Shown in pieces: positions 853-18,037 of a stretch of 21,124 nucleotides of DNA. The stretch spans positions 1 to 21,124 of the forward strand of contig JBFRWI010000173.1 of assembly GCA_051439505.1 (NCBI GenBank). The letters are read 5' to 3'. The translations under genes and the position numbers were made by a program. Source of the stretch: Hormoscilla sp. (GTDB taxonomy: Bacteria > Cyanobacteriota > Cyanobacteriia > Cyanobacteriales > Desertifilaceae). The notes below the pieces were generated by a model, which saw only the letters and a program-made list of their open reading frames with translations, searched no databases and was not told where the DNA came from. The first letter of the stretch is position 1, and every line of letters begins with the position of its first letter.

Positions 853-2520
853 ATGAATAACCTACCAGACTTCTCCAGCCACAACTATCAAGTCGAACGG
901 GAACTGGGGCAAAATCGCACCTGCGGTCGCGTTACCTACCTGGCACGTGAAGTCCCCATCTCCTCAGAAACACCGCTGGCACTGGCCCCGAGAGGCGATC
1001 GTGCTGACGCTGTGGTGATCAAGCAGTTCAATTTTGCTCAAACAGTCTCTAGCTGGTCGGACTACGACGCCTACGAGCAAGAAATTCGGGTGCTGCAACA
1101 ACTCAATCATCCCAGCATTCCCCGCTATCTAGATTCTTTCGCCACCCCAACGGGTTTCTGTATGGTGCAGGAATACAAGCAAGCACCCTCTTTAGCCGAA
1201 CCTTACCCCTGGACCCCCCAGGAAATTAAGCAGATTGGCTGTGCTATCCTAGAGCTATTGATTTACTTACAATCACTGAACCCTCCCATCATCCATCAAG
1301 ATATTAAACCGGAAAATATCCTGGTCGATCGTTGGCAAAATCTGAAAGTTTACCTGGTGGATTTTGGTTTTGCTCGCAATGGCGGAGCTGAAGTGGCCGC
1401 CAGCAGCGCTGTCAAAGGCACTTTAGGATTTATGCCTCCAGAAAAGCTGTTTAATCGCCAGTTGACGGCAGCATCGGACCTCTACAGTCTGGGCGCCACC
1501 CTGATCTGCTTGCTGACTAACACCAAATCAACGGAAATCGGCAATTTAGTTGATGGGTCTTTTCGGATCAACTTCAAGCATCTGGTGCCAAGGGTAAATC
1601 GTCAGTTTATTCGCTGGCTGGAAAAAATGACGGCACCTAACCCCAAACATCGCTTTGCTAATGCCGCAACGGCCCTGGCAGCACTGCGACCTATTGATGT
1701 TGTCGGTCTAGGTACTTCCCGAGGCATACTAGCCAACAGCCTCCAATTCTCTACTGGAGCAGCAGTAGTGGGACTGGCCACCCTGGGTAGTTTATCCCTT
1801 CTGGGTCGAACTCCGATGCTGTTGCGAAACGAACCTGCTTTATATGAAACCCGACTGCAAGTTCACAACATCCAACAACATCACAGGCATCTGCCAAGCT
1901 CGGGAAATAGCCATCACCAGTTGCTAGACAATCGTCAATGCAGCAAATGCGATCTCAGAGGTGCTAATCTCGCAAATATGAAACTCGCAGGTGCTAACCT
2001 CGCAGGTGCCAATCTCGCAGGTGCTAATCTGCGAGGCGCTGACCTTGCAGGTGCCAACCTGCGGGGTGCCGATCTGGGTTCGGCCTCTCTTACAGGTGCG
2101 GATCTGGGAAATGCTAACCTCCAAGGAGCGGATCTGGGAAATGCTGACCTCCGAGGCGCTTACCTCCGACATGCTAACCTAAGCTCTGCCTACCTAGAAG
2201 ATGCCTATCTCAAGCATGCTGACTTAGGGGATGCCCGATTGGGAGGTGCCAACCTGGAGGGGGCGCGTCTGGAGGGTGCTAAACTAGGACGTACACAGCT
2301 GGGGAATGCCGATCTCTCTGGCGCCGACCTGCGGGGTGCTGACCTCAAGCGAGCTAATCTCGCGAATGCCGATCTCAAGGGTGCTGACCTCCGGCATGCC
2401 CATCTATGGGGCGCTCATCTGCGGGGCGCTAATCTCGAAGATGCCTACCTCCGGGGTGCCGATCTCGAAGGTGCTCGTATCAAAGGTGCCATCATGCCCA
2501 ATGGTCATATCCACCCCTAG
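853..2520 (+). CDS. Pkn2-type Ser/Thr protein kinase with a C-terminal pentapeptide-repeat domain
   Basis: VVIK lysine, HQDIKPEN catalytic loop, DFG, GTLGFMPPE and SDLYSLG. These are followed by a hydrophobic stretch (GAAVVGLATLGSLSLLG), a CSKC cap and a long run of A(D/N)LxG pentapeptides ending in AIMPNG. Confidence 0.93.
   Translation: MNNLPDFSSHNYQVERELGQNRTCGRVTYLAREVPISSETPLALAPRGDRADAVVIKQFNFAQTVSSWSDYDAYEQEIRVLQQLNHPSIPRYLDSFATPTGFCMVQEYKQAPSLAEPYPWTPQEIKQIGCAILELLIYLQSLNPPIIHQDIKPENILVDRWQNLKVYLVDFGFARNGGAEVAASSAVKGTLGFMPPEKLFNRQLTAASDLYSLGATLICLLTNTKSTEIGNLVDGSFRINFKHLVPRVNRQFIRWLEKMTAPNPKHRFANAATALAALRPIDVVGLGTSRGILANSLQFSTGAAVVGLATLGSLSLLGRTPMLLRNEPALYETRLQVHNIQQHHRHLPSSGNSHHQLLDNRQCSKCDLRGANLANMKLAGANLAGANLAGANLRGADLAGANLRGADLGSASLTGADLGNANLQGADLGNADLRGAYLRHANLSSAYLEDAYLKHADLGDARLGGANLEGARLEGAKLGRTQLGNADLSGADLRGADLKRANLANADLKGADLRHAHLWGAHLRGANLEDAYLRGADLEGARIKGAIMPNGHIHP
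1951..2490 (+). repeat. Pentapeptide-repeat coding tract (15-bp period)
   Basis: Repeated GC(T/C)(A/G)A(T/C)CT codon units encoding A[DN]Lxx. Confidence 0.9.
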
Positions 2521-6084: not shown

Positions 6085-8022
6085 TCAGTTATTAGCGCTA
6101 TTCCCATCGGAAGGTGATTGAGTCTGTTCTGGCACCTCTTGGGACTCTTGCAATGGTACTGGCGGCGCTGCGGTTGGTGCTGGTGGTTGTGTTGCCGATC
6201 GTGCTTCTGTATCTTCTGGCTGGTTTCCTGTGGCTATTGTATCATTGCTGCGCAGCAGCTGACTTAATCCAGAGAGCAATGCCCCCAGTTTTCCTTCTTC
6301 CAGTAAGGTGTCAATTAAGGCTAATCCACTGGTTGACAGTAGCATTTTGTTGATTTCCCCGGCGCTATTGCCATTATTGGCTCCTGGGAAGGAGTATATT
6401 CTGGTATCCCCCAATACTCCGGGTTGCGGTGCTAATGCCTTGACTATTTCTGGTAATTGGGGGGCGATCGAGGGCCAGATTTCCCCGATCAGTTTAGCAG
6501 ATAGCTTGGCATCGTCGAGGGCGTTTTCCGCTTCAAAAACTGCTTGCTTTCCTTCCGCTTCTGCTAGGGCTTTGTCTCGATTCGCTTGTGCTAGAGTACG
6601 GATGGATTCTGCTTCGAGATCTGCTGCTTGGCGGGCGATTTCTGCTTGCCGTTTGCGCCGGAATACATCGAGTTCTACCACGTTTTGTTCCGAGATCCGG
6701 CGCTGTTGGGCCTCCTGTTCCGCTGCTATTACGGCAAGACGCTGTTCCCGTTCGGCTTTTTCCACTTCTGTCGCTGTCATGACTGCTGCTTCTGCTTGGG
6801 CCCGTTCTGCTTCGGAATTTAAGCGATCGCGTTCTTTTTCGGCTATGGCGATCGCGGCTTCTTCCTGAGCAATTTTTGACTCCCGTTCCGCTTCAGCGAC
6901 TGCCACCTGGGCTTTCAGGCGCGATGCATCAATGGTTTGCTGGCGATTAATTTCGGCAACTTCTGCTTCCTGTTTCTGCAATGTTTGGGCAACTTTCAAT
7001 TGCTTATTGCGCTCTTCTAAGGCAATGTTGGCATCTATTTGACTCTGTTGTACTGCCAACTGCTGTTTTATCTTTTCTTCTTCAACCGCTTTGTCCTGCA
7101 AAATCTTATTTCGCGCTACCTTTGCTGTTTCTTGGTCCTTCGATTCTTGAATTTCCCGTTCTCGCTGGGCCGTGAGGGACTCCACTTCTAGCTTCTGAGC
7201 TAGTTTCGCTTCTTCGGTCTCTTTGGCGATCCGCAAACTCTGCTTTTGGGCGTCCAGTTCCCGCTGCTCGATCGTTACCTGGGTTTTCAGTTCCACTTCC
7301 CGCTTTTGCTGGATGGATTTTTGGATGGTTTCCGTGCGCAGGCGCACCCCTTGGGCATCGAAGAAGTTATTTTCGTCGTAGGTATCGCTTTCTTCGATTT
7401 CAGAAATGGCAATGTTGTTGAGGGTCAAGCCGACTTTTTTCAAGTCTTGCTGAATTAAGTTTAACACTTCATCGGCAAATCCTAATTTGTCGGAATCAAT
7501 TTCTGCTAAACTCTTCTTTTTCGCCGCCGCCCGAATGGCATCGTCAGCCCGTTTTTCCAAGGCATCTTTGATATCTGTTGCCGAAATTTGTCCTTGTTTA
7601 GACAGTCTAGCTGCTGCGGTTAAAACATCTTGTTCCTTGGCATTAATGCAGACGTAAAAGGTGACTCGCATATTGGCCCGCAGGTAGTCTTGGGTGCGGA
7701 CGGCGAGTTTTCCTGTCCGTTCCACGTCAATGGAAATTTCTCGCAAGGGTACGCGGGTGATTTCGTGAAACCCGGGCAGCACTATGCAACCGCCATTCAG
7801 CACTACCATTTTCTTCTTGATAAATACGCCGCCTGTCCTCAAGAAGGCTTCGTTGTTGGGGGTTATTTTATAAACCCGGGTGTAGGCGAAAATGCTGAAC
7901 AGCAGTAAAATGACTACTGCGGCGATCGCCCCCGGGAAAAAGAGTATTCCCGGGCTTAACTGACCGATGGTTGGCTGTATTGGTGTTGGTGGGACTGTTT
8001 GGGCTATGTAGGATTTGGTCAT
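6085..8022 (-). CDS. Flotillin/SPFH (band 7) family protein, YqiK-like
   Basis: N-terminal TM helix, SPFH domain (NEAFLRTGG, VRTQDYLRA, NNFFDAQG), a long Ala/Glu/Gln-rich coiled coil and a Pro-rich tail. A YqiJ-like partner lies upstream. Confidence 0.9.
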   Translation of the reverse strand: MTKSYIAQTVPPTPIQPTIGQLSPGILFFPGAIAAVVILLLFSIFAYTRVYKITPNNEAFLRTGGVFIKKKMVVLNGGCIVLPGFHEITRVPLREISIDVERTGKLAVRTQDYLRANMRVTFYVCINAKEQDVLTAAARLSKQGQISATDIKDALEKRADDAIRAAAKKKSLAEIDSDKLGFADEVLNLIQQDLKKVGLTLNNIAISEIEESDTYDENNFFDAQGVRLRTETIQKSIQQKREVELKTQVTIEQRELDAQKQSLRIAKETEEAKLAQKLEVESLTAQREREIQESKDQETAKVARNKILQDKAVEEEKIKQQLAVQQSQIDANIALEERNKQLKVAQTLQKQEAEVAEINRQQTIDASRLKAQVAVAEAERESKIAQEEAAIAIAEKERDRLNSEAERAQAEAAVMTATEVEKAEREQRLAVIAAEQEAQQRRISEQNVVELDVFRRKRQAEIARQAADLEAESIRTLAQANRDKALAEAEGKQAVFEAENALDDAKLSAKLIGEIWPSIAPQLPEIVKALAPQPGVLGDTRIYSFPGANNGNSAGEINKMLLSTSGLALIDTLLEEGKLGALLSGLSQLLRSNDTIATGNQPEDTEARSATQPPAPTAAPPVPLQESQEVPEQTQSPSDGNSANN

Positions 8023-8048
8023 GGGTCAAGGGATTTATGCACGACAAC

Positions 8049-8060
8049 TCTATGTTAGCA
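8049..8060 (-). promoter_or_regulatory. Putative extended -10 element (TGCTAACATAGA) for the flotillin gene
   Basis: TGn-TAACAT about 27 nt upstream of the ATG. An identical 12-mer lies upstream of yqiJ-like (9290-9301). Confidence 0.5.
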
Positions 8061-8069
8061 TCTCCCCCT

Positions 8070-8139
8070 GCCGCCGCACCCTCAAGCCGCCGCACCCTCA
8101 AGGGTGCGGCTACATATACAAAGCCCGCCTGCGCGGGCT
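8070..8139. repeat. Double-hairpin REP-like element with an internal 16-bp tandem duplication
   Basis: GCCGCCGCACCCTCAA x2 (8070-8101). Stem GCCGCACCCT/AGGGTGCGGC (8089-8110) is followed by TAC (GTAG on minus). Second stem AGCCCGC/GCGGGCT (8122-8139). Confidence 0.75.
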
Positions 8140-8202
8140 GAACTTACATACATACATGCCTACTTTTTCGCCCGCCATGGGCGATCGCACCCCACGGACG
8201 TG

Positions 8203-8237
8203 AGTTCGGAGTTCGTAGTTCGTAGTTCGTAGTTAGG
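8203..8237. repeat. STRR-type heptamer tandem repeat (AGTTCGT)x5
   Basis: AGTTCGG AGTTCGT AGTTCGT AGTTCGT AGTTAGG. Confidence 0.85.
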
Positions 8238-8266
8238 GTGCATCCTTCTGCGGCGCAAATCTATCT

Positions 8267-8336
8267 GTAGGGGCGAAGCATTTGGGCGACAATATAAGCC
8301 ATAAATTGACAAATGGACTATCCAAATGCTTCGCCC
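8267..8336 (+). repeat. GTAG-footed long inverted repeat (REP/REPIN-like)
   Basis: GTAG, then a perfect 15-bp inverted repeat GGGCGAAGCATTTGG (8271-8285) / CCAAATGCTTCGCCC (8322-8336) with a 36-nt spacer. Confidence 0.8.
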
Positions 8337-8426
8337 ACCGCGTAGTGCAGTGTACCCCGTTGTTTTGGGGTTATAGCAGTTCTCGTGGTCTTGCACCAGT
8401 TGGAAAAAAAATACCACACCCACGAA

Positions 8427-8448
8427 TGGTGGGCGATGCCCACCCTAC
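8427..8448 (-). repeat. GTAG-family REP-like hairpin, second copy
   Basis: TGGTGGGCGATGCCCACCCTAC, one mismatch to 2723-2744. Confidence 0.8.
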
Positions 8449-8453
8449 TAAGC

Positions 8454-8485
8454 AATTCAAAATTCAAAATTCATAATTCAAAATT
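8454..8485. repeat. STRR-type heptamer tandem repeat (AATTCAA)x4.5
   Basis: AATTCAA AATTCAA AATTCAT AATTCAA AATT. Confidence 0.85.
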
Positions 8486-8611
8486 GGGAAAGCCTTTGAG
8501 AGTAAGGATCGCAGCAGATCGACATATGCAATTTAAATGCGCGACAGCTTAGGCAACTGTCTTTTAGTGCATGATGTTCTCTGACTATAGCAGATCCCGA
8601 GAGACATGTTC

Positions 8612-9265
8612 TCACAATTCTTGCCATCTTTCTTGGTCTATACTATCCTGGGCAATTACTAAGTAGCCCGACCCAGACCGATCGACTACAATTACGTTTT
8701 GGCCGCGACGGGGGATAACTGTGGCCCAGTCTGGCAACCGGGCGTCGATCGTCACTAGGTTGCGTGCTGGATCTATGACATCTACTTGCCCGATCGCCCC
8801 TTGACTTTCTTTAGGAATGGTGCTAGTGCTAACTGTACCGATGCAACCGATCAGGCGATCGGGGCTAGTATCTTCTCCAAAGGAGGCGAAGATTTTCCCC
8901 AAGGGTCGAGATATCAAACTCCCGGCCCACAGACTGAGGACCATGGACCCGACAAACACCGCAGTTGCTAACAAACCACTAGGGTTACCCAAAGCTACGT
9001 TCAGCATCCACCCCAAGACTCCCCAAAAGCTGAAGTCTATTGCTAATAGCAAAATCAAGGGGGCTTTACCAATACCTAACCATCCTAGCACTTCTAAGGG
9101 ACTGAAGTCACCACCAGCATCTACATCCATATCGGTATCCATATCTATGTCACTGTCCAGATCGAGGTCATCGTCTCCTCCTCCTGCAAAAATGACGATC
9201 GCCGCACATAGCACTCCTATTGAGAGAAAAATCCAGTATGGTAAGTTGGATGGGTCAAACAGCAT
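8612..9265 (-). CDS. YqiJ/NfeD-like membrane protein with C-terminal OB-fold (flotillin partner)
   Basis: Three hydrophobic segments, an acidic (D-x)n linker, LGWLGIGKAPL and a C-terminal LIGCIGTV...GQVDVID beta domain. It lies directly upstream of the flotillin gene on the same strand. Confidence 0.85.
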   Translation of the reverse strand: MLFDPSNLPYWIFLSIGVLCAAIVIFAGGGDDDLDLDSDIDMDTDMDVDAGGDFSPLEVLGWLGIGKAPLILLLAIDFSFWGVLGWMLNVALGNPSGLLATAVFVGSMVLSLWAGSLISRPLGKIFASFGEDTSPDRLIGCIGTVSTSTIPKESQGAIGQVDVIDPARNLVTIDARLPDWATVIPRRGQNVIVVDRSGSGYLVIAQDSIDQERWQEL

Positions 9266-9360: not shown

Positions 9361-9389
9361 TGGACATCCTATTGCGAATCTGCTATGAT
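9361..9389 (+). promoter_or_regulatory. Putative sigma70 promoter for terB1
   Basis: TGGACA-N17-TATGAT with an extended TG (TGcTATGAT). RBS AAGGAG lies just before ATG 9523. Confidence 0.5.
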
Positions 9390-9522: not shown

Positions 9523-10005
9523 ATGACCAGGAGGAAAAATTTGCAACCGTCAAACTATGCCATCAAAAAATATAACCTGACGACCGCTATTGATTTTGAT
9601 GTGGCGGTGAAGTACAGTAGCGTGTTAATGGCGATCGCCAGCGCTGATGGGTATCTGACTGAGGAAGAATTAGATTGGTATATTGAAGAACAGATTTTGA
9701 TCGGAGGAACTGAAGAATATATAGAGGCGATCGCAGCTATTGATTTGCGCCATACTAACATCGAGGATATTTTAAATGAAATTAAGGATGATTTTCCGCT
9801 GAATTGTAGTCACTGTTTGCTGTACCAAGCGATCAAGATGAGTCGCTCAGATGGAGTATATCATGATAAGGAAAAAGCAGCGGTGGCGCGAGCAGCAAAA
9901 ATTTTAGGGGTTGAAGATAGCGTGGTAGCTAGCATTGAGGCTCTCGTGGAAATGGAAGATGCTACAGATCGACTCAGGCGGGCCATGATGAAGAGGAAAG
10001 TTTAA
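9523..10005 (+). CDS. TerB-family (tellurite-resistance-like) protein, paralogue 1
   Basis: Duplicated TerB motif: LMAIASADGYLTEEE ... AIKMSRSDGVYHDKEKAAVARAAKILGV. RBS AAGGAG. Confidence 0.8.
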   Translation: MTRRKNLQPSNYAIKKYNLTTAIDFDVAVKYSSVLMAIASADGYLTEEELDWYIEEQILIGGTEEYIEAIAAIDLRHTNIEDILNEIKDDFPLNCSHCLLYQAIKMSRSDGVYHDKEKAAVARAAKILGVEDSVVASIEALVEMEDATDRLRRAMMKRKV

Positions 10006-10041
10006 TTAATTTGGTTAGTGGCCCCGGGAAGCCTACCGGTG

Positions 10042-10134
10042 CCGATCGGCCCTGGGCCTCTACCAAAGGACATAAAAGTAAGTGAGAAGAAATCGAGGGG
10101 TTGACAAATGTATCTCAAGTTGGTATAGTAAAAT
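10042..10134 (+). promoter_or_regulatory. Duplicated promoter cassette, copy 1 (TTGACA 10101-10106, N17, TGgTATAGT with -10 at 10124-10129)
   Basis: Consensus -35, exact 17-nt spacer and extended -10. The ~93-bp segment matches 11709-11802 with roughly a dozen differences by manual alignment. Confidence 0.8.
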
Positions 10135-10171
10135 TGAACAGGGTATTCACCAACAAGAAAAGGAGGAAAAT

Positions 10172-10651
10172 ATGAGCAACAGTCTCCAGCCGACAAAATA
10201 TGCTAAGCAGAAATATAACCTCACCTCTCCAGGAGATTTTGAGGTGGGAGTGAAATACGGCTGCGCGTTAATGGCTATCGCCGGTGCGGATGGGGAACTG
10301 GCAGAAGCAGAATTGGAGTGGTTTATTGACGAACAAAAACTCTTGATGGTAGAATCAGAAGAGTACATTGAAACGATCCGCAAATTCGATTGGAAGAATG
10401 CTAACATTGAAGAGCTATTGAGTGGAATAAAGTATGATTTTCCTCTGAATTTTCGGCGAGCCATATTGTACCAAGCGATCAAGATGAGTCGAGCTGATGG
10501 GATCTACCATGAAAAAGAAAAAGCAGCGGTGGCGAAAGCGGCGGAGCTTTTAGGAATTGAACGGAGCGTGCTTGTTAGCCTAGAGTCCGTGGCGGAAATG
10601 GAAGAGGCCACGGATCGACTGCGGCTGGCCTTATTTGAAACGGAAGTTTAA
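10172..10651 (+). CDS. TerB-family protein, paralogue 2
   Basis: LMAIAGADGELAEAE ... AIKMSRADGIYHEKEKAAV. Start placed at ATG 10172 after AGGAGG (10161-10166), giving 159 aa collinear with paralogue 1. Confidence 0.8.
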   Translation: MSNSLQPTKYAKQKYNLTSPGDFEVGVKYGCALMAIAGADGELAEAELEWFIDEQKLLMVESEEYIETIRKFDWKNANIEELLSGIKYDFPLNFRRAILYQAIKMSRADGIYHEKEKAAVAKAAELLGIERSVLVSLESVAEMEEATDRLRLALFETEV

Positions 10652-10825
10652 TTCTGCTTGACACCTTTTAAGAGAGGATTTAGATCTACTTGCTCGAAAT
10701 CCTCCCTTCGGCTGCGCTCAGAGATCGCAAACCCCCAGATTAGCAGTCAGCAATCAGTGGTGAAAGTTACAACCTCATGGCATACGCAACTTATTTTCAG
10801 ATTGCTGTCAAAAATATCTAACATA

Positions 10826-11704
10826 ATGAGTAGTCACAGTAACGAAGAAACGATTATTGAAAATATAGACTGGAATCAACTGTCGCTAGAACGATTGAAG
10901 CAGCTTCAAGCTCAAATATGTAAAGCGATCGATATTAAGAGCCGCGAATTAAAGTTGACAAAATATTCTGCCTATAATAGCAAAGATTATGAGTACAAAG
11001 CAAGTTTAGCCAAAATATTTCCCGGTCGTTTGCGGAACTCGCTGTCTGAGTATCATAACTGTGTTTTCGGAATCAGCCTGGGAAGCAAAAATTTCGTCGA
11101 GAGTAAGCGACTCGAAGCCTGCATCAAATGGATTAGCGAAAATTTCAAGGCTTGTGTAGTGCTAGTGGCGGATACGGTATACAGACTGACAATCGAGATT
11201 AGACATGGACTTAAAGAAGATGAAGCTTTGCCTTTGGCAGTTAGGACCGCAAAAGAGTTCATCAATGAGCACGGTCTTCTGTTCGAGAAATACTCCGGAA
11301 GCTGTTGGTTCGAGTTTATATTTACCTCAGAAATAGAGAAACGATCGGACTTTAAGATATATTACGAGGAGCTTGAGTGTCTTTATCGCAAAAATGAATC
11401 TTTTCAAAGCATAGTCAACTCCTTTGCCCAGACATATCTCAACCGAGGCGAACAGGTGGAAGATGAGCAAGTGTCCGACTTCAGGAAGGCGATAACATAC
11501 TTCCTTGAGGAGTCGGCTTTGTCAATCTGTCTTGTTAAAGAAGGATGGCCAGTCTTTGTTTATCCTGGGTCAATCAAAGCTTTTGCAGAAATATCAGAGG
11601 GGCTACACCCAGAAGTCCCGGAACCTCTCAAGCAAATGATCTGGGTAAGTCTGCGCCTCAAAAAGCGGCATAGTGAAAGTGGGCATCAACAGGTAGGAGA
11701 GTAA
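10826..11704 (+). CDS. tRNA-dependent cyclodipeptide synthase (CDPS), XYP subfamily
   Basis: CVFGISLGSKNF (GxSxx with the catalytic Ser, non-Asn at AlbC position 40), VVLVAD, YFLEES (Tyr178/Glu182 equivalents) and VFVYPG (Tyr-Pro, XYP signature). Start placed at the first ATG, 10826 (292 aa); this start is uncertain. Confidence 0.88.
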   Translation: MSSHSNEETIIENIDWNQLSLERLKQLQAQICKAIDIKSRELKLTKYSAYNSKDYEYKASLAKIFPGRLRNSLSEYHNCVFGISLGSKNFVESKRLEACIKWISENFKACVVLVADTVYRLTIEIRHGLKEDEALPLAVRTAKEFINEHGLLFEKYSGSCWFEFIFTSEIEKRSDFKIYYEELECLYRKNESFQSIVNSFAQTYLNRGEQVEDEQVSDFRKAITYFLEESALSICLVKEGWPVFVYPGSIKAFAEISEGLHPEVPEPLKQMIWVSLRLKKRHSESGHQQVGE

Positions 11705-11708
11705 ATTC

Positions 11709-11802
11709 CCGATCGGCCCTGGTCCTCTAGCAAAGGAGATTTATTGTAAGTGAGAATAAATCGAGGGGTTGACAAATGGCTCTCAAGTTGCTATAGTCAA
11801 AT
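11709..11802 (+). promoter_or_regulatory. Duplicated promoter cassette, copy 2 (TTGACA 11769-11774, N17, TGcTATAGT with -10 at 11792-11797)
   Basis: Same -35/17/-10 geometry and flanks as 10042-10134; begins 4 nt after the CDPS stop. Confidence 0.8.
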
Positions 11803-11863
11803 AATTAAGGAGTTTTCTACTGTAAACAAAGAACAACCAAGCATAAAAACAGGGACAGATGTT

Positions 11864-12784
11864 ATGCAGACGCAAAGGCCAGGAGAATTGGAAAATTTAG
11901 CGAAATATCCGAGTTTCAAGATGGAGCGTGCTCGGATGGAAGGGGATCGTTTGCTATTTGACCATCCCGATGGTATGATGCGAGCCTTAGGGACAGGAGT
12001 CTTCTCTTTAGAGATTCCTTCCGAGTTCCATATAGCTGCTGGCGACCTCATCGCGCGACACTATTTTGAAGAGCCTTTAGGGGATGACTTGGATGCCTAC
12101 AGGGGATTCCGAAACATTACCAGAGATATAGAATACTTTGGTTACAAAGATTATGAGGACGTTCAATGGGAACAATTTAGTATAGAAAGGGCTGAATGGG
12201 ATGCCTTATACCCAGACAATGTCGCCAGGTTAGGCGAGCAAATGCTCGACCTTGGGATCGGGGTTGTGCATAATGTTCTCGAATACCTAGGTATTAAGAA
12301 GTCAGACTGGGAAAATGTCACAAGTGGTCTGTCCGAAAAACGAGGTAATCATATGTTAAGTTTTAATCACTATCGTTCGGAAAAAAACTGTAGGGGATTT
12401 TCATTCCACAAAGACACGACTTGGGTGAGTGTGGTTCGCTCAACAGAACCTGGACTTGTTGGCGTAATTGGAGAGAAAATATTCTCGCTTAACCCAGTTC
12501 CAGGTCACTTTACCATTAACTTCGGTAGTACAATAGAATTTTTGACAGAGCAGATGGTTACTCCAGTACATGCTCTGAGACATGGAGTTGTGCGCACTCA
12601 GCGAAGTGCAGATCGAGAAGATAGAACTTCATACGTGCTTTTTCTAGATTCTAACTTAGGAGGATTAATTTATCGTTATGAGAACGGTGAGGCAAAACCG
12701 ATACAACCAGTAAAAGAATTTCTTTTTGATGAGGATCGTATTTTTAGTAAAAAGCTAGCTAAATATAACTGCTATTTGGACTAG
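11864..12784 (+). CDS. Fe(II)/2-oxoglutarate-dependent oxygenase (IPNS-like fold; resembles CDPS-associated Bcm-type tailoring oxygenases)
   Basis: FNHYR, H-K-D facial-triad motif, INFG, distal His (LRHGV) and the R-T-S 2OG-binding motif. Start placed at ATG 11864 downstream of the promoter cassette. The Bcm resemblance (N-terminal ARMEGDRLLFDHPDGMMRAL-GVFSLEIP) is from memory. Confidence 0.88.
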   Translation: MQTQRPGELENLAKYPSFKMERARMEGDRLLFDHPDGMMRALGTGVFSLEIPSEFHIAAGDLIARHYFEEPLGDDLDAYRGFRNITRDIEYFGYKDYEDVQWEQFSIERAEWDALYPDNVARLGEQMLDLGIGVVHNVLEYLGIKKSDWENVTSGLSEKRGNHMLSFNHYRSEKNCRGFSFHKDTTWVSVVRSTEPGLVGVIGEKIFSLNPVPGHFTINFGSTIEFLTEQMVTPVHALRHGVVRTQRSADREDRTSYVLFLDSNLGGLIYRYENGEAKPIQPVKEFLFDEDRIFSKKLAKYNCYLD

Positions 12785-12817
12785 GGAATAGAAAATTTAT
12801 GGATATCATGGGGTTGG

Positions 12818-13088
12818 GGCGATCGCCCGGCTTTGGTGGTACAAAATATACGAATAATACAGAGCTGGGGTATTATGTGCGCTACGATGTAATATGTGGG
12901 GTCGGCGATCGCCCGGCTTTGGTAGTACAAAATATACGAATAATACAGAGTTGGGGTATTATGTGCGCTACGATGTAATATGTGGGGTCGGCGATCGCCC
13001 GGATTGCGTAGTACAAAATATACGAATAATACAGGAGTATGGTATTATGTGCGCTACAATGTAATATGTGGGGTCGGCGATCGCCCGG
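12818..13088. repeat. Tandem array of three 86-bp units plus the start of a fourth, each beginning with GGCGATCGCC (HIP1)
   Basis: Unit starts at 12818, 12904, 12990 and 13076 (exact 86-bp period). Units 1 and 2 differ at 2 positions and unit 3 is more diverged. Each contains the ATAATAC-N9-GTATTAT inverted repeat. Confidence 0.95.
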
Positions 13089-13291
13089 GTAAGGGGGTGT
13101 AGTCAAAACCCGTTGGCAGACGAAAAGTTCATCCGACCGATCGCGTGGGGGGCGGTGAAACAGGGTTTTTTTTACTAATATCGTCTTGGTTGTCACTTCA
13201 CAATTAGCAGCGTTTAATGCCAATATAAAAGTGAGATTCTCCCGATATATGCTCTTAAAAAAAATATGCGATCAAGAAAGTTTGAATAAAA

Positions 13292-14446
13292 ATGCCTGAC
13301 ATGCCAACCCCAATACTGACTTTTACGCCGATGGGAATAGATCTGATTTCGACTATGTTAGCTGGAAACAAATCGGACTGGCGACCCATTTCTCTAGCTT
13401 TTGGTCAATCGGACTTCCCCATTCAAGAATATGTTGACCTGACAATAAGGGCCCCTGAGGTAGAAAGGGTACTGGGTTACGGGGATATTGGCGGACAGAT
13501 GTCACTGCGGGAAAAAATTAGCGGCTTTTATGCGGACCGCTTAGACGTGGATATCCCAGCGGCACGGATATTGATAACTGATGGGGCGACAGGTGCATTA
13601 GTCTTGGCACTGGGGCTGCTGGTGCGCCCGGGTAGCGAAGTCATTATACCCGCCGTCGGATATGCTGCCTATCGCCGCACCGTGCAGATGTTTGGTGGCA
13701 TTCCCATATCGGCACCCCTGGATGCAGAGTTTAACCTCTCACCCCACAGACTGCCGGATTTAATCACTGCCAAAACTGCTGCCATTATCCTCAACTCTCC
13801 GGGAAATCCCTACGGAAATGTCGCCAGTCTGGAAATGCTAGCAGAAATTGCCTCATTCGGCATTCCAGTTATTTTCGATGAAGTTTACCAGTTCATAACT
13901 TTTGCGGGTGCTTTCGCTCCCAGCGCGACGCAACTGCCTGGGGAACATTTCGTTGTCAATGGATTTGCCAAGTCCTTTGCCGTTCCGGGATTGCGTATTG
14001 GTTTTCTCATCGTACCATCAAGCTTAGCTGAAGCTGCCGAGAGTCTGAAAGTGCTGTTGAATATTTGCCCGAATATTCCCGGACAACTGTTGGCAGAACG
14101 ACTGCTAGAGAGATCCCAGCGGCTGATCGAGGAGCATCGCAGCTACTTGCGTCGCCGCCGGAAGTTCTTCTTGGCGACTTGCGATCGCCACTCTCTGCCT
14201 GCGATGGTAAATTCCCAGGCGGGATTTTATGGTATAATCGAGCTGCCGTCCGGGATGGACTCGATGAAAGCAGCATCGATGCTAGCCAAAGACTATGCAG
14301 TTGCGACTGCTCCGGGAACTGATTTTGCGGAAACAGACCCCAGTTTTTTGCGGGTCAACATTACTAAAAGCCCTGAAGATGTGTCCGAGGGAGTGCGGCG
14401 GATCGCCAAGTTCCTGGAAAGGTCCGGGATATGCGATCGGGATTAA
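13292..14446 (+). CDS. PLP-dependent aminotransferase class I/II family enzyme
   Basis: ITDGATGAL, LNSPGNPYG, IFDEVY, NGFAKSFAVPGLRIG (Schiff-base Lys) and FLRVN (carboxylate Arg). The start could be any of the Met codons at 13292, 13301 or 13331. Confidence 0.9.
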   Translation: MPDMPTPILTFTPMGIDLISTMLAGNKSDWRPISLAFGQSDFPIQEYVDLTIRAPEVERVLGYGDIGGQMSLREKISGFYADRLDVDIPAARILITDGATGALVLALGLLVRPGSEVIIPAVGYAAYRRTVQMFGGIPISAPLDAEFNLSPHRLPDLITAKTAAIILNSPGNPYGNVASLEMLAEIASFGIPVIFDEVYQFITFAGAFAPSATQLPGEHFVVNGFAKSFAVPGLRIGFLIVPSSLAEAAESLKVLLNICPNIPGQLLAERLLERSQRLIEEHRSYLRRRRKFFLATCDRHSLPAMVNSQAGFYGIIELPSGMDSMKAASMLAKDYAVATAPGTDFAETDPSFLRVNITKSPEDVSEGVRRIAKFLERSGICDRD

Positions 14447-14474
14447 ACTGAAATAATGGCAAAGGGAAATAAAC

Positions 14475-15413
14475 ATGGCAGTGCTACTACTGGCAAACAT
14501 CGATTTAGAGGAATGGTTTGGACAATTAAGGGCAGAGTTGCTGAAACGCCAGCCCGATCTAGATTTGCGAATCTGGCCGGAATGCGGGAAACTAGAAGAG
14601 ATTGAAATCGTGCTGGCATGGTGGCCCCCACTGGGAGTGATGCAAAAGTTTCCCAACCTGAAGCTGATTATGTCTCTAGGAGCCAGCGTCGATCGGATTT
14701 TAATCGACCCGGATCTGCCCGATCGCATTCCGATCGTGCGTCTGGTGTCGGAGGGTAAAATATTGCAAATGACCGAGTATGTCACCCTAGCAGTTTTGCT
14801 GTTTCAACGGCGATTTATCGAGTATCAAGCAGGGATGCGATCGCGGAGCTGGTCATATCTACCGGTGCTAGAGGCGAAGACATTTACAGTGGGGATTTTG
14901 GGTTTGGGGGAATTCGGTTCCAGGGTGGCCAAAAAGCTAGCAGCTATGGGGTTTACCGTGCGGGGATGGAGTCGATCGCCCCAAGCAATTCCTGGAGTAG
15001 AATGCTTTAGTGGGGGCGAACAGTTTAAGATGTTCTTGAGCAAATGTCGGGCGATCGTCTGCTTGCTGCCAGTAACGCCAGAAACTGAGGGAATTCTCTG
15101 CCATGAAACTTTTTGGGCTTTACCGACAGGGGCGTACTTAATTAATGTCGGTCAAGGCAAGCATTTAGTAGAAGCAGATCTATTGAGGGCATTAGATGCA
15201 GGTCAAATGAAGAGTGCCTGTTTGGACGTATTCCATAGGGAACCCTTGCCCAGTGACCATCCTTTTTGGGATCATCCCCGCATTATTGTCACTCCCCATA
15301 TCTCGGCTGTGGGTCAGCCCGGAGAAGAAGCCGATCGCATTCTAGATGCGATCGATCGCAGTCGCGAGGGAAGACCATTGGAGTATGCGATCGACCGAAA
15401 CCGGGGCTACTAA
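14475..15413 (+). CDS. GhrA-like D-2-hydroxyacid dehydrogenase (glyoxylate/hydroxypyruvate reductase A family) with a variant active site
   Basis: 312 aa. GILGLGEFG Rossmann motif, GWSRS (NADP-type), LDVFHREPLP and TPHISA. The usual NxxRG reads NVGQG and GAGVD reads GASVD. It starts 28 nt after the aminotransferase stop. Confidence 0.88.
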   Translation: MAVLLLANIDLEEWFGQLRAELLKRQPDLDLRIWPECGKLEEIEIVLAWWPPLGVMQKFPNLKLIMSLGASVDRILIDPDLPDRIPIVRLVSEGKILQMTEYVTLAVLLFQRRFIEYQAGMRSRSWSYLPVLEAKTFTVGILGLGEFGSRVAKKLAAMGFTVRGWSRSPQAIPGVECFSGGEQFKMFLSKCRAIVCLLPVTPETEGILCHETFWALPTGAYLINVGQGKHLVEADLLRALDAGQMKSACLDVFHREPLPSDHPFWDHPRIIVTPHISAVGQPGEEADRILDAIDRSREGRPLEYAIDRNRGY

Positions 15414-15752: not shown

Positions 15753-16118
15753 ATGACGATGAAGCTGAAACGACTGGGGCACGTGGCAATCTGCGTGCAG
15801 GATATTGACAAAGCAGCGGAATTCTACCAAAATATAGGCATGTCCTTAGCCTGGAAGGACAGTGACTGGGCTTACCTGAAGGCAGGTGATGATGGGTTGG
15901 CGCTGTTAAGTCCGAGTTACGGCCAGGCAGGACCGCACTTTGGCTTCGTATTTAGCGATCGGGCCCAAATGGAAGCTTGCTATCAGCAGCTACAGGGATC
16001 GGGCGTGAAAGTAAGTCAGATCCACGAACACCGGGATGGCACGGCCTCCTTCTACGGACAAGATCCAGACAGCAACTGGTTTGAGTATCTATACGAACCG
16101 GCTGTGTCCCCCGGGTAG
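15753..16118 (+). CDS. VOC (glyoxalase/bleomycin-resistance) family protein
   Basis: RLGHVAICVQD, HFGF, HEHRDGTASFYGQDPDSNWFE. RBS AAGGA. Confidence 0.9.
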   Translation: MTMKLKRLGHVAICVQDIDKAAEFYQNIGMSLAWKDSDWAYLKAGDDGLALLSPSYGQAGPHFGFVFSDRAQMEACYQQLQGSGVKVSQIHEHRDGTASFYGQDPDSNWFEYLYEPAVSPG

Positions 16119-16309: not shown

Positions 16310-18037
16310 ATGATGGTTGATTCGCCCAATCTATTCGGGTTCGGTTGGTTGTTGTTGTTGGCAAGCGCTTTGCTGATTATGAAAGTTTCCGGTGCTGACA
16401 CAGAGGCTGAAGAGAGGGTGGAACTCCCCCATGACTCATTGCTGCGCGATCGCCTGAATGAGTTAGGTATTGCTAACTGGAAGGAGTTGCGGAGAAAATC
16501 TGGGTTAAATACCCCACGCCTGTTGGAGGCCCGTCGCGGGAACCTGGAAAAGCTGACTTTTGAGGAAGTGAATCGCTTGGCAGAGACTCTCAATTGGAAG
16601 CCAGCAGAATTAAGAGCCTGTTTGGGTTTTGCCTCAACAGATGACCAGGAGGTAAAATCTCTGTCAACGGCAATATCGCAATTGCAGCAGCTTTCATCTC
16701 AAAAAACAACGGAAGTATCGCAACTGCGCTCTCAATTGCAGCAACTGGAAAGCGAGAAAACAGCGGAAATAGCTTCATTGCAGCAAGAAGGTCAGGGACT
16801 ACGCGAGCAATTGCAGCAGTTGGAAAATGAGAAAACGGCCACCCTGGCAGAGTTGCAGCAAGAACGCTCACAACTGCGCTCTCAATTAGAGCAACTCGAT
16901 AGTGATAAAACGACTATTGTATCACAATTGCAGCAAGAACGCTCACAACTGCAATCGCAATTGCAGCAACTCGATAGTGAGAAAACAGCGACCCTGGCGG
17001 AGTTCCAGCAAGAACGGGATCAACTGCGATCGCAATTGCAGCAACTCGATAGCGATAAAACGGCCAGCTGGGCAGAGTTCCAGCAAGAACGGGACCAACT
17101 GCGCGAGCAGTTACAGCAACTCGATAGTGATAAAACGGCCACCTTGGCAGAGTTCCAGCAAGAACGGGACCAACTGCGATCGCAATTAGAGCAACTCGAA
17201 AGTGAGAAAACGGCGGAAATATCCGGTCTACAGCAAGAACGGGATCAACTGCGTCAGCAATTAGAACAGCTCGAAAGTGAGAAAACGGCGGAAATATCGA
17301 GTCTACAGCAAGAACGGGATCAACTGCGATCGCAATTAGAGCAACTCGATAGTGAAAAAACAGCGGAAATATCACAATTGCAGCAACTCGAAAGTGAGAA
17401 AACCGCAGAAATATCCGGTCTACAGCAAGAACGAGACCAACTGCGATCGCAATTAGAGCAACTCGAAAGTGAGAAAACAGCGGAAATATCCGGTCTACAG
17501 CAAGAACGAGACCAACTGCGTCAGCAATTAGAACAGCTGGCAAGTGAGAAAACGGCGGAAATATCAGAGTTGCAGCAAGCATGCGAACAACTGCGCTGGC
17601 AATTGCAGCAGCAAGCGACGGAAATGATTGAATTCCAGCAACAATGTCAGCGACTGCAATTGCAATTGCAACAGCAATCAAGTCAGCTAAATGCAGATTT
17701 TCGCGACTCTACTTTCGCGGAATTGCAAGCTTTGCTGACTAATTACCCCAGCGCCCGCCAAATTGCGGAAACGAAGCCGGATTTGCCAGCCAAGAATATG
17801 ATGAAGCTGTTCACGCCCTTGGAGAACATGCTGGAGAATTGGGGTTATGAACCGATCGCGTCGGTTTGGGAACAGGTCCCTTATAATCGGAACTTGCATC
17901 AGGCGGATACTGATGATATCCAGGAAGGAGAGATGGTTTATGTCCGGTTCGTGGGATATAAGTCGGGCGATCGGGTAATCTGTCCTGCTAAGGTCAGTCG
18001 CACTCTCCCCACGGGAATTAAACCGAAGAACTCATGA
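16310..18037 (+). CDS. Membrane-anchored protein: N-terminal TM/signal, XRE-like HTH, long 25-residue-repeat coiled coil and GrpE-like C-terminal domain
   Basis: RBS AGGAGG and hydrophobic N-terminus (LFGFGWLLLLASALLIM). HTH-like LNELGIANWKELRRKSGL...VNRLAETLNW. The C-terminus WGYEPIASVWEQVPYNRNLHQ...GEMVYVRFVGYKSGDRVICPAKV resembles the GrpE beta domain. Confidence 0.75.
   Translation: MMVDSPNLFGFGWLLLLASALLIMKVSGADTEAEERVELPHDSLLRDRLNELGIANWKELRRKSGLNTPRLLEARRGNLEKLTFEEVNRLAETLNWKPAELRACLGFASTDDQEVKSLSTAISQLQQLSSQKTTEVSQLRSQLQQLESEKTAEIASLQQEGQGLREQLQQLENEKTATLAELQQERSQLRSQLEQLDSDKTTIVSQLQQERSQLQSQLQQLDSEKTATLAEFQQERDQLRSQLQQLDSDKTASWAEFQQERDQLREQLQQLDSDKTATLAEFQQERDQLRSQLEQLESEKTAEISGLQQERDQLRQQLEQLESEKTAEISSLQQERDQLRSQLEQLDSEKTAEISQLQQLESEKTAEISGLQQERDQLRSQLEQLESEKTAEISGLQQERDQLRQQLEQLASEKTAEISELQQACEQLRWQLQQQATEMIEFQQQCQRLQLQLQQQSSQLNADFRDSTFAELQALLTNYPSARQIAETKPDLPAKNMMKLFTPLENMLENWGYEPIASVWEQVPYNRNLHQADTDDIQEGEMVYVRFVGYKSGDRVICPAKVSRTLPTGIKPKNS
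16781..17572 (+). repeat. Intragenic 75-bp (25-aa) tandem repeat: 10 full units plus one 42-bp (14-aa) unit
   Basis: Consensus QQERDQLRSQLEQLESEKTAEISGL. 10x75+42 = 792 bp, matching 16781-17572. Confidence 0.92.

Follow-up and report, generated by a model that had tools for sequence, protein, structure and literature searches.

The CDPS described here falls in the clade of CDPS 18, whose entry as a cyclo(Ala-Pro) enzyme reportedly derives from Jacques et al. 2015. In the supplement to PMC5816076, CDPS 18 is entered with cAP as 100% of its product on overexpression in E. coli, an entry that gives the product and not whether Ala or Pro occupies pocket P2, and CDPS 89, the other cAP enzyme listed there, has the P2 motif FFYRGID. 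A second point of reference is the bicyclomycin (bcm) cluster, which consists of BcmA, five Fe/2OG dioxygenases, the P450 BcmD and an MFS transporter (PMC5930311, PMC6934819). BcmE from Streptomyces sapporonensis (8XHY) is a hydroxylase of cyclo(Ile-Leu) (PMC12089406). Our literature searches, in which most matches were judged by their listing and subscription papers lay outside the scope, returned no paper describing TerB paired with a CDPS, nor one in which a cyanobacterial CDPS accompanies a 2OG oxygenase. The region analysed here, from a filamentous cyanobacterium, looks like a modular small-molecule locus rather than one six-gene pathway, and its gene set probably makes a Pro-containing cyclic dipeptide, as judged from the encoded sequences.

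Genetic organization of the locus

In the window, that is, the whole analysed stretch of 21,124 nucleotides, six co-oriented forward-strand reading frames, all open and full length, lie between a yqiJ-like gene (8612-9265, reverse strand) and a VOC gene (15753-16118). This arrangement, described in the initial annotation, is borne out by our ORF and family assignments. Alignment with homologues led us to revise the likely starts of terB2, the CDPS gene and the oxygenase gene to the ATG codons at 10172, 10826 and 11864, respectively. The GC content is 42-46% in the terB-CDPS-oxygenase part and 51-52% in the aminotransferase-dehydrogenase part.

A consensus scan placed a sigma-70-like promoter match (TGGACA-17-TATGAT, extended TG) 5' of terB1 at 9361..9389 on the forward strand, and predicted near-consensus promoters (TTGACA-17-TATAGT) in two copies of a repeat on the same strand. 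Copy 1 (10042..10134, promoter at 10101-10129) precedes terB2 and copy 2 (11709..11802, promoter at 11769-11797) precedes the oxygenase gene. The copies are 87% identical over 94 nt, and they are the two copies of this element in the whole genome, both at the terB-CDPS-oxygenase locus. The duplicated 94-nt element had been overlooked in the initial annotation.

The 507-nt gap between the oxygenase and aminotransferase genes holds the GC step and an array of a dispersed 86-nt unit (12818..13088, forward strand, 3.2 copies, 94% matches); no terminator was found between the two genes. Related copies of this unit are present on contigs C73, C171 and C190, and we judge the array to be a junction marker outside the pathway. 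We rejected the reading of the array as an RNA (no Rfam match, folding z −1.66) and as a CRISPR, the units being arranged head to tail without distinct spacers.

The terB2-CDPS unit and its predicted product

The conserved unit is terB2 (10172..10651, forward strand) together with the CDPS gene (10826..11704, forward strand); in 19 of the 22 distinct loci of the close CDPS clade, a terB gene in the orientation of the CDPS gene lies 61-208 nt away from it. Both TerB-like proteins of the window exceed the PF05099 cut-off of 24.4 (33 and 38 bits). They are not the twin pair that had been proposed, since terB1 (9523..10005, forward strand, COG3793 type) is a divergent paralogue that is 58% identical to terB2 and 49-58% identical to CDPS-linked TerBs, the two being placed in different parts of the tree. 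TerB2 matches the fold of 2OU3 (TM 0.74; Z 18.4, rmsd 2.8, 150 aligned residues, 28% identity), the only solved structure of this TerB subfamily, which is listed with indole-3-carbaldehyde bound. The divergences of TerB and CDPS were poorly correlated (Spearman coefficient 0.13, p 0.10). No terC, terD or terZ was found beside terB, and both TerD genes of the source genome (G000) are on contig C180. TerB2 is most likely a non-essential accessory protein and a putative binder of the CDPS product or a related small molecule.

In the HMM family check both the CDPS (72.4 bits against a TIGR04539 cut-off of 45, and 27.8 against a PF16715 cut-off of 27) and the oxygenase (27.1 bits against a 2OG-FeII_Oxy cut-off of 23) scored above threshold. 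Residue mapping confirmed the motifs that had been noted as intact in the CDPS, namely GIS (S84), YFLEE (Y225, E229) and YP (Y246, P247). S84, Y225, E229 and Y246 correspond to Ser37, Tyr178, Glu182 and Tyr202 of AlbC, and S87, Y246 and P247 to the X40-Y202-P203 signature of the XYP type. Among solved structures the S. sapporonensis CDPS 9J61 is the closest (E 9e-42), and the predicted model (pLDDT 86) matches it as well (E 7e-22, TM 0.95 of target). The 50-residue helical N-terminal extension had no match in an Atlas search and may resemble H-NS oligomerisation helices. TIGR04539 under-counts the CDPS 18 clade, finding 2 of 400 other genomes of the phylum, and profile A2 was used instead; it finds a CDPS in 20 of 400 other genomes of the order.

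Over 288 residues the CDPS is 67% identical to P0012, the sequence of which is that of CDPS 18, and our pocket mapping recovers the CDPS 18 motifs as published in PMC5816076. The pockets read VGLATLSF (P1) and FTYRGIK (P2). P2 is thus that of the CDPS 18 type and P1 departs from its FILCAVFF, and neither pocket fits the motifs of the cLI/cLL (BcmA type) group (P1 FGLGC[VI]F[MF], P2 FxYRGF[SG]). Among the supplementary file 4 entries of PMC5816076 that were examined, no characterised enzyme has the P1 motif VGLATLSF. Because P2 is the same as in CDPS 18 and P1 is roomier, cyclo(Xaa-Pro) is predicted rather than the bicyclomycin core, most likely with Pro bound in P2 and with P1 accepting a residue bulkier than Ala. 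The product, held by the initial annotation to be beyond prediction, is hence partly predictable, the pockets pointing to cyclo(Xaa-Pro) and not to cyclo(Ile-Leu). Both pockets recur unchanged in P0008, a 93% identical CDPS (X7 record 22) on a contig where the 232 letters 3' of the CDPS gene differ from the window.

A Bcm-type oxygenase as a probable accessory module

The oxygenase gene (11864..12784, forward strand) encodes a relative of Streptomyces BcmE with an altered substrate pocket, and we regard it as an accessory module. Its metal and 2-oxoglutarate motif, reported as intact and upheld by residue mapping, is H182-x-D184..H240..R254-x-S256. The best solved match is SsBcmE 8XHY (300 bits, E 1.7e-88 over residues 5-290, against 137-145 bits for other Bcm-type structures). 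Together with the HxD..H triad and RxS, full-length similarity to BcmB/C/E/G marks the protein as Bcm-type. Of the bicyclomycin-like logic that had been proposed, an XYP CDPS and a genuine member of the bicyclomycin dioxygenase family are supported, and the six-gene pathway is not. The oxygenase keeps the BcmE ring-contact residues F273/D275 as F260/D262, which is weak evidence of substrate because these residues are common throughout the family. In the BcmE pocket (R111, Y120, H175, M177, S198, F273, D275, T307, Y308), 3 of 7 scored positions are kept, the C-terminal ones (T307, Y308) aligning poorly. Since Streptomyces BcmE groups with Gram-negative BcmF, hydroxylase or desaturase activity is not readable from kinship. 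A halogenase type was ruled out by the HxD motif; a search of G000 for SyrB2/BarB-type halogenases gave no match, and its control also matched nothing.

With profile A3, one family member was found in G000 (93% complete). The oxygenase was found at none of the 34 other CDPS loci, in none of 400 other genomes of the phylum and in none of 5 near genomes, so that its link to the CDPS has no support from conservation; no oxygenase locus was found in the metagenome scan or in plasmids. On a related contig (X5 record 15), a close orthologue flanked on either side by the promoter element separates terB1 from terB2; this contig ends within terB2, before any CDPS position. At 80% likeness, run X5 had no CDPS cover and run X7 no oxygenase cover, neither being counted as absence, and 10 of 14 small-share runs were left out of the comparison. 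The oxygenase gene looks like a mobile module of the terB-CDPS locus, and the chances that its product acts on the dipeptide made by the neighbouring CDPS are about even.

It is a real possibility, if not a probable one, that terB2 and the CDPS gene form the sole unit and that the oxygenase is separate, perhaps paired with terB1 and acting on another diketopiperazine or small molecule, its position next to the CDPS gene reflecting a site where TerB-led enzyme modules preferentially insert. The oxygenase gene has its own promoter copy and lies directly 3' of terB1 in X5 record 15, terB1 groups (support 87/93, not full) with TerB paralogues located ahead of other enzymes, and 6 of the 7 other TerB-like genes of G000 directly precede small-molecule enzymes other than CDPSs; even P0002, a 73% identical relative, has a pocket unlike that of the window enzyme. 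Against this, the characterised family members described in PMC12089406 and PMC6934819 all use diketopiperazines, and although cyanobacteria very seldom carry the enzyme, both placed copies are in the TerB locus.

A locus in decay, made up of acquired genes of which some or all have ceased to function, is in our view unlikely. In L029 the corresponding site shows terB and VOC frames that are split and a CDPS gene interrupted by stops, breaks that may be assembly errors, and in G004 it retains only a terB1 fragment; an oxygenase remnant lies on contig C175, and the dehydrogenase lacks Arg227. Protein identity of the oxygenases (73%) is low for their DNA identity (125 differences in 801 nt), which also fits diversifying selection on pockets. 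The window itself, however, keeps its six frames and its near-consensus promoters, and the catalytic residues of the CDPS, the oxygenase and the aminotransferase are complete.

The aminotransferase and dehydrogenase genes

The two remaining genes encode a fold-type I PLP enzyme of the class I/II aminotransferase family (13292..14446, forward strand; Aminotran_1_2) and a GhrA-like D-2-hydroxyacid dehydrogenase (14475..15413, forward strand; 2-Hacid_dh_C), both of which we judge to be passengers. The aminotransferase scores 198.4 bits against the GntC cyclodehydratase profile NF041364 (cut-off 415), and the dehydrogenase 256 bits against the GhrA profile NF012013 (cut-off 403). The catalytic triad of GhrA-type dehydrogenases consists of Arg, Glu and His, the Arg binding the 2-oxoacid carboxylate. 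The dehydrogenase retains E256 and H275, and at position 227 it carries Gln instead of the Arg of its orthologue, of its paralogue and of E. coli-type GhrA; from this residue pattern it is probably impaired.

Aminotransferase and dehydrogenase orthologues are found at none of the 34 other CDPS loci, and the cluster, drawn initially as a six-gene pathway at 9523..15413, accordingly shrinks to 9523-12784, the outcome that the initial annotation had itself named as counting against the larger cluster. The four close aminotransferase loci have no CDPS or TerB match and show methyltransferase, carbamoyltransferase/JmjC/radical-SAM or other contexts. In L056, orthologues of the aminotransferase (80.5%) and the dehydrogenase (74%) flank a PRMT-like methyltransferase on a 7.8-kb contig without a CDPS match; 1120 other letters separate the two genes in X5 record 17. 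In X4 record 13, by contrast, they adjoin each other with no methyltransferase. The pair probably represents the remains of an aminotransferase-methyltransferase-dehydrogenase cassette that has lost its methyltransferase and would not act on the dipeptide. The occurrence of these genes elsewhere without a CDPS and the loss of Arg227 also speak against the hydroxyl-to-ketone-to-amine route suggested for them. A six-gene pathway, in which the dipeptide would be hydroxylated, oxidised to a ketone by the dehydrogenase and aminated by the aminotransferase, is very improbable: co-orientation, open frames, the rarity of the aminotransferase (no match at E 1e-60 in 400 genomes of the class) and of the oxygenase, and the similar depth (15-19) of terB, oxygenase, aminotransferase and dehydrogenase in run X5, which suggests that this relative may have the same neighbourhood, are outweighed by the distribution of the orthologues, by the gap with its dispersed repeat and GC step, and by a dehydrogenase without the Arg for a carboxylate that a diketopiperazine does not have.

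Proposed mechanism and significance

The reading that we put forward, with an even chance of being correct as a whole, is that terB2-CDPS makes cyclo(Xaa-Pro), that the BcmE-derived oxygenase module modifies this dipeptide, and that the aminotransferase and dehydrogenase are passengers. Module 1 (promoter, terB2, CDPS) would convert two aminoacyl-tRNAs into a diketopiperazine by the ping-pong mechanism on Ser84, which is established for the family and the residues for which are present here. Module 2, a second promoter copy with the oxygenase, would most likely hydroxylate or desaturate one side chain of the dipeptide, its presumed substrate, using Fe(II), 2-oxoglutarate and O2, a chemistry established for the family. 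The promoter repeats might let modules reorder, in keeping with the reordered genes of the relative. More tentatively, and with considerable doubt, filamentous cyanobacteria may hold a diversity-generating cyclo(Xaa-Pro) system with a fixed P2, a fast-changing P1 and a TerB product binder or sensor per copy, extended here by a BcmE-derived oxygenase with a re-tuned pocket, on a duplicated promoter cassette that allows modules to be shuffled, to give an oxidised cyclodipeptide; COG3793 TerBs would then serve biosynthetic enzymes quite generally as partners that bind small molecules, and would not be tellurite resistance proteins.

The system has two to three genes and a CDPS that is 67% identical to an enzyme active in E. 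coli. It bears on three questions: which product a P1 pocket of the VGLATLSF type yields, whether a Bcm-type oxygenase that stands alone, away from a bcm cluster, oxidises a Pro-containing dipeptide, possibly as a new C-H oxidation catalyst, and what role a TerB domain has away from ter operons. The corrected border spares effort on the aminotransferase and dehydrogenase.

Comparison with known systems

The aminotransferase shares its fold and most motifs with class I/II aminotransferases including GntC, and scores below the GntC cut-off; the dehydrogenase likewise shares fold and most motifs with the GhrA glyoxylate/hydroxypyruvate reductase, and differs in its score below cut-off and in Gln for Arg227. 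TerB2 shares its fold with the COG3793 TerB-like protein Npun_F6341 (2OU3) of Nostoc punctiforme. CDPS 18 of Moorena (Moorea) producens 3L (WP_008190827) has the N-terminal extension, P2 FTYRGIK and the catalytic residues in common with the window CDPS, whereas 5 of 8 P1 positions differ in kind or size (FILCAVFF against VGLATLSF), mostly to smaller residues in the window, where an oxygenase gene is moreover adjacent. Relative to BcmE, the window oxygenase keeps the metal and 2OG ligands, M177, F273 and D275, but has Tyr for R111, Ser for Y120, Asn for H175 and Thr for S198, and does not keep the C-terminal QEVSRTY helix. The bcm cluster and the window both have an XYP CDPS beside a Bcm-family oxygenase; the window differs in having one such oxygenase genome-wide, no P450 or MFS gene in the locus, pockets outside the cLI/cLL group, and TerB genes.

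Gene content and DNA elements of the locus

Reading of the open reading frames recovered the six plus-strand genes that the initial annotation had placed between the yqiJ-like and VOC genes, and its family calls held against Pfam and NCBIfam: terB1 (9523–10005), terB2 (10172–10651), a CDPS (10826–11704), a 2OG-Fe(II) oxygenase (11864–12784), a class I/II aminotransferase (AT, 13292–14446) and a D-2-hydroxyacid dehydrogenase (DH, 14475–15413). Homologues favour the ATG starts at 10172 (terB2), 10826 (CDPS) and 11864 (oxygenase). A 94-nt element is present in two copies (87% identity), one before terB2 and one before the oxygenase gene, and no further copy was found anywhere else in the Hormoscilla genome (G000), of which the window is the complete contig C173. 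This element carries TTGACA-17-TATAGT plus an extended TG, and a third promoter-like site is located upstream of terB1; these sites are matches to the consensus, not mapped transcription starts, and the predicted promoters may be active. A repeat array (12818–13088; 3.2 copies of an 86-nt unit), with relatives on three further G000 contigs, follows the oxygenase gene, and the GC content rises across it from 42–46% to 51–52%. The window also contains dispersed intergenic repeats (13090–13190 and about 8250–8550) with many copies in G000 or same-genus genomes, an ordinary YqiJ-flotillin pair (6085–9265, minus strand), a Ser/Thr kinase with pentapeptide repeats (853–2520, plus strand), and a genus-conserved protein (16310–18037) with an HTH-like N-terminal part, a coiled-coil region encoded by a 75-nt tandem repeat, and a C-terminus resembling GrpE.

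Conservation of the TerB-CDPS pair

We compared the wide flanks (0.2 to 9.7 kb) of 40 CDPS loci, of which 34 remained after removal of 6 duplicates; two short fragments were left out. Twenty-two of the 34 CDPSs are at least 45% identical to that of the window, and in 19 of these 22 close-clade loci a TerB-like gene lies on the same strand at a distance of 61–208 nt. The exceptions are L025, L027 and a third locus, L026, whose available upstream sequence spans just 224 nt. Among the more distant CDPSs, 3 of 12 have a TerB-like neighbour. A crude estimate comes from contig sizes: of the 106 in the CDPS homologue table, 39 recur among the 120 of 184 TerB matches listed. The named carriers, all filamentous cyanobacteria, include Moorena, Okeania, Symploca, Dapis, Calothrix and Hormoscilla. 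Most CDPS-linked TerBs are 69–81% identical to terB2 and 49–58% identical to terB1, which in the tree clusters with TerB paralogues leading other genes, with incomplete support (87/93). In L031 (7398–11310) three CDPS genes of two types alternate with two TerB-like genes, and in L095 (8615–17477) an NRPS with a methyltransferase domain lies directly downstream of the pair.

The structure most similar to the TerB model is 2OU3 (Z 18.4 with 150 residues aligned at rmsd 2.8; next structure Z 8.7), a protein tabulated with indole-3-carbaldehyde in PMC2954221. G000 has seven further TerB-like genes, and six lie directly upstream of a co-oriented small-molecule enzyme (a CAT-like acyltransferase, three methyltransferases, a flavin monooxygenase and a FeeM-like acyltransferase). 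For 37 control genes (39 random ORFs of 135–200 aa, minus two that were TerB genes themselves) the neighbour was co-oriented in 18 cases and a small-molecule enzyme, a lipoxygenase, in one; Fisher's p-value of 7e-6 is overstated, as the paralogues are not independent and the category was set post hoc. TerB may have a binding or sensing role. The TerB-led groups sit on contigs C129, C53, C91, C86 and C147 (L106, L107, L109–L111); one methyltransferase group includes an aromatic amino acid lyase, another group consists of O-methyltransferase, flavin monooxygenase and type III PKS-like genes, and the FeeM-like acyltransferase has a cNMP-binding domain. The TerD genes of G000 are on a contig other than the window's.

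Substrate pockets and predicted product of the CDPS

The CDPS motifs described in the initial annotation are intact, with the full set of catalytic residues, and the predicted structure matches the S. sapporonensis CDPS 9J61, presumably BcmA. A nearer reference is CDPS 18 of Moorea producens, which matches in sequence P0012, a protein 67% identical to the window CDPS. The supplement of PMC5816076 lists CDPS 18 as producing 100% cAP when overexpressed in E. coli; judging from the column heading there, this clade can probably work in E. coli without a TerB partner. Our pocket mapping reproduces the motifs given there for CDPS 18 and was thereby validated. The P2 pocket motif, FTYRGIK, is common to both enzymes, whereas P1 is VGLATLSF in the window CDPS, FILCAVFF in CDPS 18 and FGLGC[VI]F[MF] in the cLI/cLL group. 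Across 112 homologues six of the seven P2 positions are nearly invariant, while P1 positions 35 (Gly in 44, Ile in 32, Ala in 13), 67, 119 and 186 vary, with entropies in the 65th–83rd percentile of the core. Because Ala fits the bulky P1 of CDPS 18, and because the second cAP enzyme in that supplement also has FxYRGI in P2, P2 is probably the Pro site. The predicted product of the window CDPS is thus cyclo(Xaa-Pro), Xaa being larger than Ala, although PMC5816076 itself warns that predictions for XYP CDPSs are less secure; its supplementary file 4 may contain a P1 motif nearer to that of the window. Roughly 90 of the 112 homologues share a conserved helical extension some 50 residues long. Other CDPSs have a long N-terminal part (L096, 3744–4904; L098, 8789–9949; similar ORFs in L097 and L099), which in L098 is an aminoacyl-tRNA editing (tRNA_edit) domain, or are fused with a cyclic-nucleotide-binding domain (PF00027; P0113, P0116, P0118, P0119).

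Function of the oxygenase, aminotransferase and dehydrogenase

Beside the observed gene content, residues, synteny and module order we set a reading to which we give about even credence: the terB2-CDPS module would yield cyclo(Xaa-Pro), the oxygenase would oxidise it once, and AT and DH would be passengers. The oxygenase retains all ligands for iron and 2OG, as the initial annotation had claimed, and its best solved match is SsBcmE 8XHY (300 bits; other Bcm-type structures 137–145). The substrate residues of BcmE named in PMC12089406 include M177, F273 and D275, which are retained in the window enzyme, and R111, Y120, H175 and S198, which are replaced by Tyr, Ser, Asn and Thr but all kept in the BcmE-like relatives P0004, P0006 and P0240. 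Speculatively, loss of the Y120/Y308 pair, which binds a ring NH, would be in keeping with a ring that contains Pro. The gene is rare: we found six other related proteins at E 1e-20, and none in 400 other genomes of the phylum (E 1e-15) or in five near genomes. P0005, attributed in EukProt to the gregarine Selenidium serpulae, shares 42% identity and nearly the same pocket residues with the window enzyme and has long insertions; either transfer or contamination may explain it. A short fragment corresponding to the N-terminus of the oxygenase, with a frameshift, remains on C175 of G000 (L112, 43119–43257).

That the oxygenase is unrelated in function to the CDPS is the strongest alternative, though we consider it rather unlikely. 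In its favour, a contig of a relative (X5 record 15) that carries the oxygenase has no CDPS but ends at terB2, and in run X7 the 232 letters that come after a CDPS with 95% DNA identity do not resemble the window. The sole 2OG profile match in the CDPS survey was a partial domain on the opposite strand, 2.5 kb from the CDPS of L025. 

The order on X5 record 15 is yqiJ, terB1 with a promoter element, oxygenase, promoter element, terB2. A second lineage therefore has the oxygenase at this locus too, but placed differently, as a module flanked by promoter elements. Between X5 and the window the oxygenase gene differs at 125 of 801 nt (yqiJ, 48 of 762; terB1, 51 of 634). On the leading reading, the CDPS dipeptide would be the substrate of the oxygenase.

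Decay of the locus would be in keeping with the same site in L029, where terB1-terB2-CDPS with broken frames precede transposase-like genes and then VOC, and in G004, where only a terB1 fragment is left; with motifs intact in the window, we regard it as improbable there.

Least probable is the six-gene pathway, since the linkage of AT and DH to a CDPS proposed in the initial annotation failed to recur: tblastn matched neither these genes nor the oxygenase at any of the 34 other CDPS loci (flanks 0.2–9.7 kb), and CDPS, TerB and oxygenase had no match in the AT loci L056, L057 and L058. A metagenome scan for AT yielded six loci, four of them close (61–81%). The cyanobacteria-like cluster L056 (3340–7773) has the order AT, PRMT-like methyltransferase, DH (74%), second PRMT-like methyltransferase; in L057 and L058, also cyanobacteria-like, AT lies among cupin-like, carbamoyltransferase, PLP, JmjC, radical-SAM and FGE-like genes adjoining NRPS genes. 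The AT-DH gap is 28 nt in the window and holds 1120 other letters, the size of the L056 methyltransferase, in X5 record 17; the best G000 match to that PRMT-like methyltransferase is 34% over 131 aa, not a close orthologue. Residue 227 of DH is Gln in the window versus Arg in L056, the C140 paralogue and GhrA, and Ser replaces Gly in the GAG loop. The top NCBIfam match of AT is GntC, far below the GntC cut-off. Against passenger status for AT and DH, X4 record 13 likewise has AT beside DH without a methyltransferase, and terB, oxygenase, AT and DH have similar depth in X5 and may be long-term neighbours. The intact DH paralogue (51%, Arg kept; L113, C140 14490–16644) stands back to back with another aminotransferase.

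Comparison with known systems

In the literature searched (parts of PMC12089406, PMC5816076, PMC5930311, PMC6934819, PMC2954221 and PMC7761380) we found neither the TerB-CDPS link, nor a cyanobacterial CDPS locus with a single oxygenase derived from BcmE, nor the promoter-flanked modules. The combination of a CDPS with a 2OG oxygenase is already known chemistry, and the CDPS clade has one characterised member.
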